Source of the DNA: a virus
Lineage: Duplodnaviria; Caudoviricetes
DNA: 64,000 nt
Direction: 5' to 3' (one strand)
IMG/VR virus record: IMGVR_UViG_3300030330_004160
Coordinates: 96,001-160,000 of that record
The notes under the pieces were generated by a model, which was given only the letters and a program-made list of their open reading frames with translations, made no database searches and was not told the DNA's origin. Each line of letters starts with the position of its first letter. The stretch's first letter is position 1. This document shows, one piece after another, positions 1 to 2,163 of this stretch. Both the position numbers and the translations under genes were made by a program.

Positions 1-1306
1 TGAACAAATTGAACAAATCCCTGCTGAGATCATTGACATAGATCAAGTCAAGAAAGACATAAGCGACAAAGAGCGTGAGATAAAAAACGTCCTGCGACAA
101 AATATCAAACTTCATGATAGTATAGCCCGTAGTAGGATTAAGATTGAAGATGTGGATGTTATTCTGGCTGGTATCGACCTGCAAAAACTCAAGAACCAGA
201 AAGAAGAATGGAACACAATGTCTAAAAAGCGCTCCACCGTTCAAGGACAATGCAACACTACCAATGCAAAGTTGCAAAACAACCAAGCAAAACTAAAACT
301 TCTTGATGATATTCCTTGCGGCGAAAAGTTTCCAAATTGTAAGTTCATTTGTGATGCCCACAAAGCCAAAAAAAACGTGGGCGGTCTCTCCCGTGAAATC
401 GCAAAATTTAACGAAACTTTATCCGAGGTGGATACTTGGTTAGGAAACGTTAAAATTTCGGCTGTAAATGCTTCGATTGATGAGTATGAGGCGTCAAAAA
501 ACATCAGAGTCACCATAAACAACAGCATTAAAGACGCTTCCTTGGCGATTGAGAAGAATAAAGCCAAGATTCAGAAGTTAAAAGCAAACATATTGGACTT
601 GCAAGAGAAAGAAACTCTTTACGAGGAGAATAGAGAAGTTATAGAAAATCTAGGCACCCTGCTCAGAGAAAAGCAATCCATTGAAAAGTTAATTAAAAAT
701 AAAACATCACAGAATAAAAAATGTCAAGATGCTTTACAAGAACTTTACATTGAGCAAGGTGCAACAAAACAAACGATTGAAAACCTTCTTGATAGCAAGA
801 AAGAGGTAGAAGACATTGAGAAAGAGTGGGTGGCTTACGATTTGTTTATGAGATGTATGCATCCCAATGGTATACCATACGATATCATCAAGAAAAAGTT
901 GCCTGTCATTAATGGCGAAATAGCCAAAGTTCTTGCTAACATCGTTGACTTTGAGGTTTCCTTTGAGAATAATGACAAGAAGTTAGACATTAACATAAAG
1001 CATCCAAATTATGACGCTAGGCCCCTGTCCATGGCATCGGGAGCGGAAAAGACCTTGGCTTCAATGGCGATACGATTGGCGTTAATTTCTATAACAAATT
1101 TGCCAAAATCAGAAATTTTCGTATTAGACGAACCAGCAACAGCCCTAGACCACGAACACATGGAAGGTTTTATTAGACTTCTTCAAATGATAAAAAATCA
1201 ATTTAAGACAGTTATTTTAATATCTCATCTGGATTCATTGAAAGATGTGGTCGATATGACAATTGATATTGAAAAAGTTGATGGCTATGCTAAAGTGAGG
1301 ATTTAA
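1..1306 (+). CDS. SbcC/Rad50-like recombination ATPase (T4 gp46-like), 5' truncated by window
   Basis: Frame open from position 2; long coiled coil, CxxxxPxC zinc-hook-like motif, ABC signature ASGAEK, Walker B/D-loop FVLDEPATALD, H-loop ISHL. Confidence 0.93.
   Translation, partial: EQIEQIPAEIIDIDQVKKDISDKEREIKNVLRQNIKLHDSIARSRIKIEDVDVILAGIDLQKLKNQKEEWNTMSKKRSTVQGQCNTTNAKLQNNQAKLKLLDDIPCGEKFPNCKFICDAHKAKKNVGGLSREIAKFNETLSEVDTWLGNVKISAVNASIDEYEASKNIRVTINNSIKDASLAIEKNKAKIQKLKANILDLQEKETLYEENREVIENLGTLLREKQSIEKLIKNKTSQNKKCQDALQELYIEQGATKQTIENLLDSKKEVEDIEKEWVAYDLFMRCMHPNGIPYDIIKKKLPVINGEIAKVLANIVDFEVSFENNDKKLDINIKHPNYDARPLSMASGAEKTLASMAIRLALISITNLPKSEIFVLDEPATALDHEHMEGFIRLLQMIKNQFKTVILISHLDSLKDVVDMTIDIEKVDGYAKVRI
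1127..1306 (+). repeat. Copy 1 of 180-bp direct repeat (3' end of SbcC gene, DEPAT...KVRI*)
   Basis: Aligns without gaps to 1984-2163; 26 mismatches by hand count (~86% identity), only 2 amino-acid changes. Confidence 0.97.
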
Positions 1307-1332
1307 TCCCCCCAGTATGTTTTTTCTTGATG

Positions 1333-1371
1333 AGCCACCTATTTATTTTAGACAGACTTAAATAGGTGGCT
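1333..1371 (+). promoter_or_regulatory. Perfect 13-bp hairpin sequestering the endonuclease RBS; 5' arm contains late-promoter motif CTATTTA
   Basis: AGCCACCTATTTA (1333-1345) / TAAATAGGTGGCT (1359-1371); SD AGGTGG 1364-1369, ATG 1376. Confidence 0.8.
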
Positions 1372-1375
1372 TTTT

Positions 1376-1969
1376 ATGACTTGTGGAATATATCAAATCA
1401 AAAATATTATCAATGGGATGATGTATATAGGCAGCAGTGTCAACATCCAAAAAAGATGGCAACAACATTTAAGGTTGCTCCGGAAAAACTCTCATGAGAA
1501 TTCACATCTTCAAAATTCTTTCAATAAACATGGCGAGAGTAATTTTGAATTTTCTGTTTTGATAGAAGTCGACAGAGAGCAACTACTCATTGAGGAGCAG
1601 AAATATATGGATGATACCAAGTGTTATGATCGCAATGTTGGCTTTAATAAATCTATAACAGCAGGGCACCCAACGAAAGGCAATAAAATATCTGAAGCAA
1701 CACGGGCAAAAATGAAAGAGGCCAAAAGAGGATACATACCAGTATGCGCGCATATGCCCATGTCAGAAGAAGGAAAAAAAAGAATTAGTGAAATAGCCAA
1801 AACAAGAACAGGACATAAGAATCCAAACTCCCGCCTAACACCGGAACAGATAACAGAGATGCGAAAAGATTTTAAGATCTGTAGCATGACTAATGGCGAA
1901 ATAGCAAAAAAATATGGAGTTTCTATTTCAACTATTAAGAGAATTAAGAGTGGAAAAACATACAAATAA
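1376..1969 (+). mobile_element. Free-standing GIY-YIG homing endonuclease (NUMOD3-like and C-terminal HTH DNA-binding modules)
   Basis: CGIYQI...YIGSS...RWQQH...H.N.HLQNSFNKHG...E; SEATRAKM and SEEGKKRISE repeats; HTH IAKKYGVSISTIKRI. Confidence 0.93.
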
Positions 1970-1971
1970 CG

Positions 1972-1979
1972 ACTATTTA
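1972..1979 (+). promoter_or_regulatory. Putative late promoter ACTATTTA at right end of endonuclease element
   Basis: Recurrent motif upstream of structural genes. Confidence 0.55.
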
Positions 1980-1983
1980 TATT

Positions 1984-2163
1984 GATGAGCCAGCAACAGC
2001 CCTAGACCATGAGCATATGGAGGGGCTCATAAGACTTCTTCAGATGATAAAAAATCAATTCAAAACAGTTATATTGATTTCACATTTAGATTCTTTGAAA
2101 GATGTGGTCGATATGACGATTGACATTGAGAAGGTTGATGGCTTTGCCAAAGTGAGGATTTAA
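1984..2163 (+). pseudogene. Displaced duplicate of the SbcC 3' end (copy 2 of 180-bp repeat)
   Basis: Encodes DEPATALDHEHMEGLIRLLQ...GFAKVRI* with no start or RBS at its 5' end; its TAA abuts the next ATG (2165). Confidence 0.9.

Follow-up and report, generated by a model that had tools for sequence, protein, structure and literature searches.

The stretch of DNA analyzed here (the window) comprises 64,000 nucleotides (nt), bases 96001 to 160000 of a 185,386-bp IMG/VR virus record (IMGVR_UViG_3300030330_004160) that is rated complete and belongs to an uncultured marine phage. Near its left end, a GIY-YIG homing endonuclease gene lies between two copies of the 3' end of an Mre11-Rad50 (gp47-gp46) fusion gene, and this arrangement is the subject of the present report. 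Positions are those of the window, and all features named at the locus are on the plus strand. The 3' 1305 nt of the fusion gene occupy positions 2 to 1306; the whole open reading frame (ORF; L003:2176-5307) starts 1825 nt upstream of the window, encodes 1043 amino acids (aa), and is the functional copy. An Mre11-type phosphoesterase N-terminus is fused to Rad50/SbcC in this single ORF: the Pfam domains of the 1043-aa product were Metallophos, AAA_23, and SMC_N, with SMC_N matched by the part encoded in the window. A fusion of like size (1043-1050 aa; Metallophos plus SMC_N) was also present in distant relatives. An earlier interpretation made from the letters of the window (here, the sequence-only reading) had named the host gene SbcC/gp46; the Rad50 assignment stands, but the gene is the Mre11(gp47)-Rad50(gp46) fusion rather than a plain gp46.

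A direct repeat of 180 nt was detected between positions 1127 to 1306 (copy 1) and 1984 to 2163 (copy 2), with 86% identity and an E value of 8e-56 in a search within the 185-kb genome. The repeat reported by the sequence-only reading on both sides of a GIY-YIG gene is thus real, with the GIY-YIG ORF between the copies. Copy 1 is the in-frame, functional end of the host gene (its last 59 codons plus the stop), covers the Walker B/D-loop region, and was presumably imported. Copy 2 appears to be the displaced end of the resident gene, an orphan that is stop-free without a usable start; its longest ORF with a standard start encodes 48 aa, from the ATG at 2017. The TAA of copy 2 is followed by one base and then by the ATG of the next gene, orf2165 (2165 to 2542), whose Shine-Dalgarno sequence GAGG lies in the last codons of copy 2, 7 nt before the ATG. 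The earlier description of a start-less, stop-free downstream copy joined to the next gene was therefore accurate.

The copies differ at 26 sites, of which 23 are at codon position 3 and 19 are transitions, and only two residues change (F15L and Y54F); F15L is a unique residue change in copy 2. Nei-Gojobori counting gave 24 synonymous and 2 nonsynonymous differences (dS of ∼1.6 and dN/dS of 0.009), in line with the nearly all synonymous divergence noted previously. If one copy had drifted freely under neutrality, no more than 2 nonsynonymous changes among 26 would arise with a probability of 7e-15. Because the divergence is almost wholly synonymous, the copies diverged as two working alleles in different genomes.

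The gene between the copies (1376 to 1969) encodes an I-TevI-like GIY-YIG homing endonuclease of 197 aa, as indicated by matches to Pfam (PF01541 GIY-YIG, 3.6e-10, above cutoff), PHROG (homing endonuclease, 3e-28), and the I-TevI catalytic-domain structures 1mk0/1ln0 in the PDB (E value of 1.6e-16). Residues Y6, Y17, R27, H31, H40, E74, and N91 were invariant in the family alignment. The DNA-binding part matched Sigma70_r4 (0.0016) and NUMOD3 (0.0085), both below Pfam cutoffs, and a PHROG helix-turn-helix family (1.4e-4). No Rfam intron families were found in positions 900 to 2400, and the host ORF ends on its own stop, as expected from the earlier proposal that the element inserts without splicing. 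A database search returned 39 related proteins, the nearest being 54% identical. Family members with 44-54% identity lay 58-70 nt after the 1043-1050-aa fusion gene in every locus examined (L073, L087/L088, L090-L097, and two places listed without DNA). More distant GIY-YIG enzymes at other sites (L017-L032) had no comparable flanking duplication, with short matches in L022/L023 and L027.

The L numbers designate comparison loci from viral and metagenome collections, in which about 60 loci carried the same host gene. No cultured relative was usable, because a search of the region's DNA against 50,697 phage records gave no match and a protein search of phages gave a best identity of only ≤30%. 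The closest relatives of the host gene were L038 (90% aa identity), L036, L033, and L034, and seven endonuclease-free loci made up the near clade. At this one conserved site, at least six lineages were filled and ∼50 related loci were empty, the latter having one gene end each.

A predicted hairpin with a stem of 14 bp and a loop of 13 nt, followed by a T-run, separates the host gene from the endonuclease gene (1332 to 1372; fold of −22 to −25 kcal/mol, z of −4). Its 3' arm contains the Shine-Dalgarno sequence AGGTGG (1364 to 1369), 6 nt before the endonuclease ATG, and its 5' arm contains a promoter-like CTATTTA motif (1339 to 1345), 37 nt before the same ATG. The hairpin was kept in seven endonuclease-bearing loci, with three compensatory pairs and 1 of 84 cells broken. 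In the endonuclease-free loci L006, L084, and L086, the hairpin and the last ∼50 nt of the endonuclease ORF are followed by sequence identical to the L073 downstream region; since that ∼50-nt remnant is present, these represent a locus that has lost its endonuclease. The spacer and hairpin that follow copy 1 were confined to loci with the endonuclease or with traces of its former presence. The 12-mer CTTGATGAGCCA (1326 to 1337), which immediately precedes the hairpin and extends into it, is identical to the Walker B site of L034/L036/L038, and related versions were present in L073, L087, L090, L092, and L093. This target look-alike may resemble the I-TevI operator, which mimics the homing site (PMC2988022), or it may be an old junction scar. 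The presence of the 11-12-mer in endonuclease-free L006 raised the option that it was part of a native terminator, which was discarded given the ∼50 nt of endonuclease ORF in that locus.

Comparison with endonuclease-free relatives indicated which copy is resident. In L033-L036, the gene stop overlaps the ATG of an orf2165-like gene, and the junction reads as it does between copy 2 and orf2165. Because the closest endonuclease-free relatives (L033-L036 and L038) have a single gene end, and L033-L036 carry it with this junction, copy 2 is taken as the resident end. Both the empty allele and the orphaned resident 3' end predicted by the sequence-only reading were thus found, with copy 2 in the native context of these relatives. 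At repeat sites 3, 6, 27, 30, and 33, copy 2 reads TGTGT, as do L034/L036/L038, and copy 1 reads CACAC, as does L039. Across all 26 diagnostic sites, L039 matched copy 1 at 19 and copy 2 at 1, and L034/L036 matched them at 10 and 15, respectively. A tree built from the 480 nt leading up to the repeat placed the window with L033, L034, L036, and L038 (support of 99/96) and L039 outside, and a tree of the 3' 177 nt, a segment too short to give formal proof, placed copy 1 as sister to L039 (83/91). The context, with copy 2 in the position of an endonuclease-free gene end and copy 1 next to the endonuclease-only spacer and hairpin, is stronger evidence than the tree.

The boundaries of the inserted block could be narrowed by the same comparisons. 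The 18 nt before the Walker B Asp codon, encoding SELFIL, were the same in 7 of 7 near-clade endonuclease-free relatives, synonymous sites included. The working gene of the window differs from them at 9 of the 18 nt (1109 to 1126, codons SEIFVL), whereas its preceding 42 nt contain three differences from L033, and for this reason the imported tract is placed as beginning near 1109. This recoded patch is likely the left part both of the imported tract and of the endonuclease target. On the other side, the orphan has a head (1972 to 1983) that corresponds to native positions −13 to −1 (L-F-I-L) with one base missing and includes CTATTTA at 1973 to 1979; when aligned locally with the native allele of L038, the orphan matches from 1972 (native position −13) onward. 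From the tract start and the start of orphan homology, the inserted block spans ∼1114-1971. The sequence-only reading had the repeat begin exactly at the Walker B DEP codons and placed the insertion in the most conserved motif of the gene. This holds for the 180-nt copies and for the general location, but orphan homology begins at 1972, ∼12-13 nt upstream, and the insertion point is ∼13 nt upstream of the DEP codons.

The sequence immediately before the orphan head (…ACAAATAACGAC) matched the post-stop flank of distant endonuclease-free loci over 24 bases, a match that no shuffle equaled. A junction at CTATTTA microhomology is plausible, because the distant flank and the native coding sequence both contain this heptamer. 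The idea that the sequence after the endonuclease is purely a terminator-arm remnant (AATAACGACCTATTTAG…, from distant endonuclease-free loci) was rejected, since CTATTTATA-TT continues native coding sequence. If the junction was at CTATTTA, the terminator-arm and native-coding origins may both be true.

CTATTTA occurred 18 times on the plus strand versus 3 times on the minus strand, with ∼5.5 expected per strand. Eight plus-strand copies lay 13-56 nt upstream of ORF starts, including those of the tail sheath gene and a tape-measure-like gene, and the heptamer is a candidate late-promoter motif of this phage group. Plus-strand sites included 13680, 21171, 22084, 25274, 25868, 29016, 34522, 55061, 60539, and 62706, often after T-rich terminator-like runs. 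The copy at 1973 to 1979 is at the same place in the native gene of 7 of 7 near-clade relatives and is conserved at synonymous sites; being homologous to native coding sequence of endonuclease-free relatives, it belongs to the resident gene and is not cargo. The mobile unit proposed earlier therefore keeps its recoded end, hairpin, and endonuclease but loses the late promoter, which is plausible as such but resident by homology. The T4 late-promoter consensus TATAAATA (1974 to 1981) was considered as a promoter and dismissed: it lies on the minus strand, which is devoid of genes, and the plus-strand CTATTTA is the better candidate.

The hexapeptide before DEP differed between loci with and without the endonuclease. 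SELFIL was present in 48 of 48 loci without any sign of the endonuclease (a SELFIL-type site reads …CTATTTATACTTGATGAGCC…) and in none of five endonuclease-bearing lineages, which had SEIFVL, GSTFIL, SDIMCL, STLMVL, and STMFIM. The endonuclease-free exceptions to SELFIL were the three loci that had lost the gene and L056, whose gene end groups with that of L073. Such a pattern is what an arms race over a recognition site would be expected to produce. The genomes of L084 and L086 are otherwise identical and differ only in a patch of ∼170 nt that starts ∼20 nt before the Asp codon and lies ∼55-225 nt before the hairpin, over the Walker B region (L084 being on the minus strand). The pair offers a clear-cut natural case of localized allele replacement. 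Co-conversion of the flank is evident both there and in the sharp start of the recoded patch near 1109.

Decayed orphans recurred in two other lineages. In L093/L094, whose endonuclease is 49% identical, the endonuclease stop is followed by ACTATTTATAATTGATG, which matches native positions −13 to +4 at 16 of 17 nt, and then by the last ∼35-45 nt of the gene end, running straight into the next gene. Three independent contigs (L095-L097; endonuclease 44% identical) contain a frame-broken orphan of ∼110 nt and then an orf2165-like gene, and a second gene-end relic lies farther on, abutting the homologue of orf2555. The order in L095:3200-4100, also found in L096 and L097, is orphan, orf2165-like gene, truncated orf2555 start with its upstream junction, second relic, and intact orf2555 homologue. 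These layered relics suggest that two or more rearrangements took place in succession; a search between the two L095 relics gave no endonuclease pseudogene, only opposite-strand matches with E values of ≥0.005. The motif after the endonuclease in L090/L091 apparently is the same head but was too short to beat shuffles.

We consider it likely that the locus holds a homing element that replaces a gene end, in which the endonuclease, the last ∼65 host codons, and the regulatory hairpin travel together. In such an element, the enzyme would cut endonuclease-free alleles in or next to the S-E-L-F-I-L-D-E-P codons (Walker B), and a filled genome would serve as template for repair of the break. Left homology would come from the 5' portion of the gene and right homology from the orphan itself or, for the founding insertion, from a short stretch of microhomology (one-sided repair). 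In this way, the recipient would gain the recoded end, spacer, hairpin, and endonuclease ∼13 nt upstream of the Asp codon, and its own gene end would be pushed downstream, still attached to orf2165 with the ribosome-binding site and the promoter-like CTATTTA motif. The imported end would presumably be uncuttable through its many synonymous changes and the two changed residues just before Walker B, and the orphan would be without the left half of the site. The endonuclease is probably held back until late, with its Shine-Dalgarno sequence buried by the hairpin; transcripts starting at CTATTTA in the 5' arm would be unable to form that structure.

Several points weigh against gene-end replacement. 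The endonuclease is missing 34 aa of NUMOD3-like linker (PF07460 in relatives) found in all relatives; given this loss and the distance to its nearest relative, the enzyme may be inactive or retargeted. There was no sign of recent spread of exactly this element. In the approximately unbiased (AU) test on the 177 nt, neither a sister relation of copies 1 and 2 (p of 0.21) nor a grouping of copy 1 with the close relatives (p of 0.16) was rejected. The sequence-only reading would have been in difficulty had empty relatives been closer to copy 1; overall, the close relatives are about equally distant from the two copies (152/153, 157/159, and 149/154 of 180), and the first five diagnostic sites side with copy 2. 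L073 and L087 carry the endonuclease with no detectable orphan, and the orphan is therefore not obligatory. Finally, we infer, rather than observe, the cleavage site, the immunity of copy 1, the repair route, and the timing of expression.

The orphan may also owe its persistence to selection, which is compatible with gene-end replacement and which we regard as a tentative possibility. It would then be kept for what it provides to orf2165 and the genes downstream, namely, a promoter-like motif, a Shine-Dalgarno sequence, and a stop/start overlap, and it might be translated as a 48-aa peptide from the ATG at 2017. The spacing of GAGG before orf2165 and the conservation of CTATTTA at 1973 to 1979 in the near clade fit such a role, the head and the tail are the very parts that survive in L093 and L090, and T4 endonuclease genes are known to be retained for the promoters that they supply to downstream genes (PMC2988022). 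However, only the two ends would be needed, yet all 180 nt are intact and F15L is unique, and the relics elsewhere have lost the middle, which suggests that it is dispensable.

It is unlikely, in our estimation, that the endonuclease is an ordinary free-standing intergenic gene, as are T4 SegF/SegG, and that the orphan is the product of a single one-sided microhomology repair with no role in spread. The order gene, hairpin, endonuclease, next gene in L073 and L087 is what would be expected under that account, the 24-position match of the pre-head sequence to a terminator flank fits a junction at CTATTTA, and one-sided illegitimate repair has been documented in T4, for intron homing (PMC2988022). 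A single accident is harder to reconcile with the same head (ACTATTTATA-TTGATG) after ∼50%-identical endonucleases in L093 and apparently L090 or with the orphan, orf2165-like gene, and second relic of L095-L097. Recurrence at one junction speaks for a regular outcome or for a junction inherited with the element.

Tandem duplication of the gene end within this genome, followed by divergence and then by insertion of the endonuclease between the copies, is very improbable. The copies are direct and in register, and the AU test left their sister relation standing; yet a start-less copy would be expected to accumulate ∼79% nonsynonymous changes (observed, 2 of 26), the downstream contexts differ and each matches another set of relatives, and the copies have opposite affinities (19 versus 1 for L039 and 10 versus 15 for L034/L036).

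An assembly chimera of two co-occurring strains, with and without the endonuclease, can be set aside: although the source is a metagenome-assembled virus contig and the Logan contigs of ERR594344 break at 1996-2016, four assemblers and at least three samples agree through both junctions, and no exact run longer than 23 nt is shared by the copies, making a k-mer graph misjoin impossible. The contigs containing the endonuclease and orf2165, from five independent assemblies (a 139-kb MEGAHIT k127 contig, a TARA scaffold, a SPAdes node, and Logan contigs of ERR599337 and ERR594344), were all 100% identical to the window across both junctions, and three of them contain the structure in full. Two spans, 536-2025 and 1052-2016, are each covered by a single Logan contig that passes through copy 1 and the endonuclease gene into the beginning of copy 2. 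The chimera that the sequence-only reading had named as a possible refutation is thereby excluded. The break in the ERR594344 contigs, one ending at 2016 and the next beginning at 1996, falls within the first part of copy 2 and could reflect a population variant or low coverage.

The surroundings of the element have features of their own. orf2165, which natively follows the resident gene end, belongs to a variable family of small genes with a conserved N-terminus (MK-I/L-TK..LK..IKEEL) and had no Pfam or PHROG match. In many loci, the stretch from the host gene to the orf2555 homologue is a hot spot of variation, 27 nt to ∼2.8 kb long depending on the locus, and the small genes within it often share only this N-terminal motif, likewise with no Pfam or PHROG match. 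Upstream, a second GIY-YIG ORF of 181 aa (L003:1638-2183; G000:C1:93637-94182) lies ∼1.8-2.4 kb before the window start. Its N-terminus is cysteine-rich and matches endonuclease VII/Lar-like PHROGs, and its GIY-YIG part is C-terminal. Because this ORF overlaps the Mre11-Rad50 start codon, that gene has an endonuclease gene on either side; homologues of the 181-aa ORF were found upstream of the Mre11-Rad50 gene in L037 and L066. Farther upstream, a 344-aa ORF (L003:370-1404), which follows a masked N run and a related 5' piece in a different frame, is by eye a candidate ATP-dependent phosphoenolpyruvate carboxykinase and thus a possible auxiliary metabolic gene. A 19-mer (TAATGGCGAAATAGC-C/A-AAA) is shared at 18 of 19 positions between 911-929, in the Rad50 part, and 1892-1910, in the helix-turn-helix region of the endonuclease; both sites encode NGEIAK, and the match may be due to chance or may be a recombination footprint.

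Gene-end replacement has so far been described in fungal mitochondria and yeast, not in phages. In the yeast WHO elements (Torulaspora, FBA1), the 3' half of the target gene is replaced, the 3' fragments decay, and the site diversifies (bioRxiv 10.64898/2026.08.13.744650). Like WHO, the proposed phage element combines an endonuclease gene with an alternative 3' part of an essential gene and replaces rather than interrupts its target; in both, displaced 3' fragments lie downstream and are decaying or deleted, the target region diversifies, also at the protein level, and the two halves of the host gene appear to have differing affinities. WHO differs in encoding a LAGLIDADG plus zinc-finger enzyme in a eukaryotic nuclear genome and in replacing half a gene, whereas the phage element encodes a GIY-YIG enzyme, replaces ∼65 codons, and has a hairpin and a promoter motif; clusters of several endonuclease genes were not seen here. 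Allele-specific cleavage is proven for WHO, whereas it is predicted for the phage element.

In the mobile ORFs of Allomyces atp6 and Glomus atp6, atp9, cox2, and nad3, an imported C-terminus is followed by an endonuclease ORF and the native C-terminus (PMC3630166), and the fungal mitochondrial precedent invoked by the sequence-only reading (atp6/atp9) thus has the same anatomy. These elements likewise have GIY-YIG or LAGLIDADG ORFs, a native segment that resembles close relatives, and differences that are mostly synonymous (PMC3630166). Several of the fungal ORFs are fused in frame, whereas the phage host gene has its own stop, a spacer and hairpin, and a separate endonuclease ORF; moreover, the fungal elements are organellar and reside in other host genes, and the present one is in a virus.

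For phages, intronless homing, genes split by endonuclease genes, regulatory hairpins, and one-sided repair have all been described (PMC2988022; PMC10448857). SegB, SegF, SegG, MobE, and I-TevI of T4-like phages share with the present element an I-TevI-like domain, a separate ORF beside a conserved gene, presence/absence polymorphism, and localized replacement of the flank. A predicted hairpin that covers the ribosome-binding site and contains a promoter-like motif is also T4-type, as is the target look-alike if it acts as the I-TevI operator does (PMC2988022), and the late-expression logic of hairpin plus late promoter is known for I-TevI, SegB, and MobE (PMC2988022). The T4-type elements, however, sit cleanly between genes or split a gene (Aeh1 nrdA and gene 60/mobA), and the target here is Mre11-Rad50. 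No case of a displaced duplicate gene end in phages was found in the full-text literature searched, with subscription-only papers being outside the search.

We lean, with modest confidence, toward a broader interpretation: that marine T4-like phages harbor a third, WHO-like homing class besides introns/inteins and clean intergenic genes. Its members would be engaged in an arms race centered on the Walker B-coding site of Mre11-Rad50, the enzyme that processes the element's own breaks, and each relic would become the next downstream homology arm and a carrier of the promoter and ribosome-binding site. If true, homing by gene-end replacement extends to bacteriophages, which suggests a general way into essential genes without an intron or intein. 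It would define a concrete target of ∼35 bp around S-E-L-F-I-L-D-E-P, for which sensitive alleles and presumably resistant ones exist in nature, and it would supply loci at graded stages of relic decay. It would also explain a local hot spot of mosaicism in a core replication/recombination gene; such mosaicism can mislead phylogenies as well as gene calling, as with the orphan that is annotated as a 48-aa gene.

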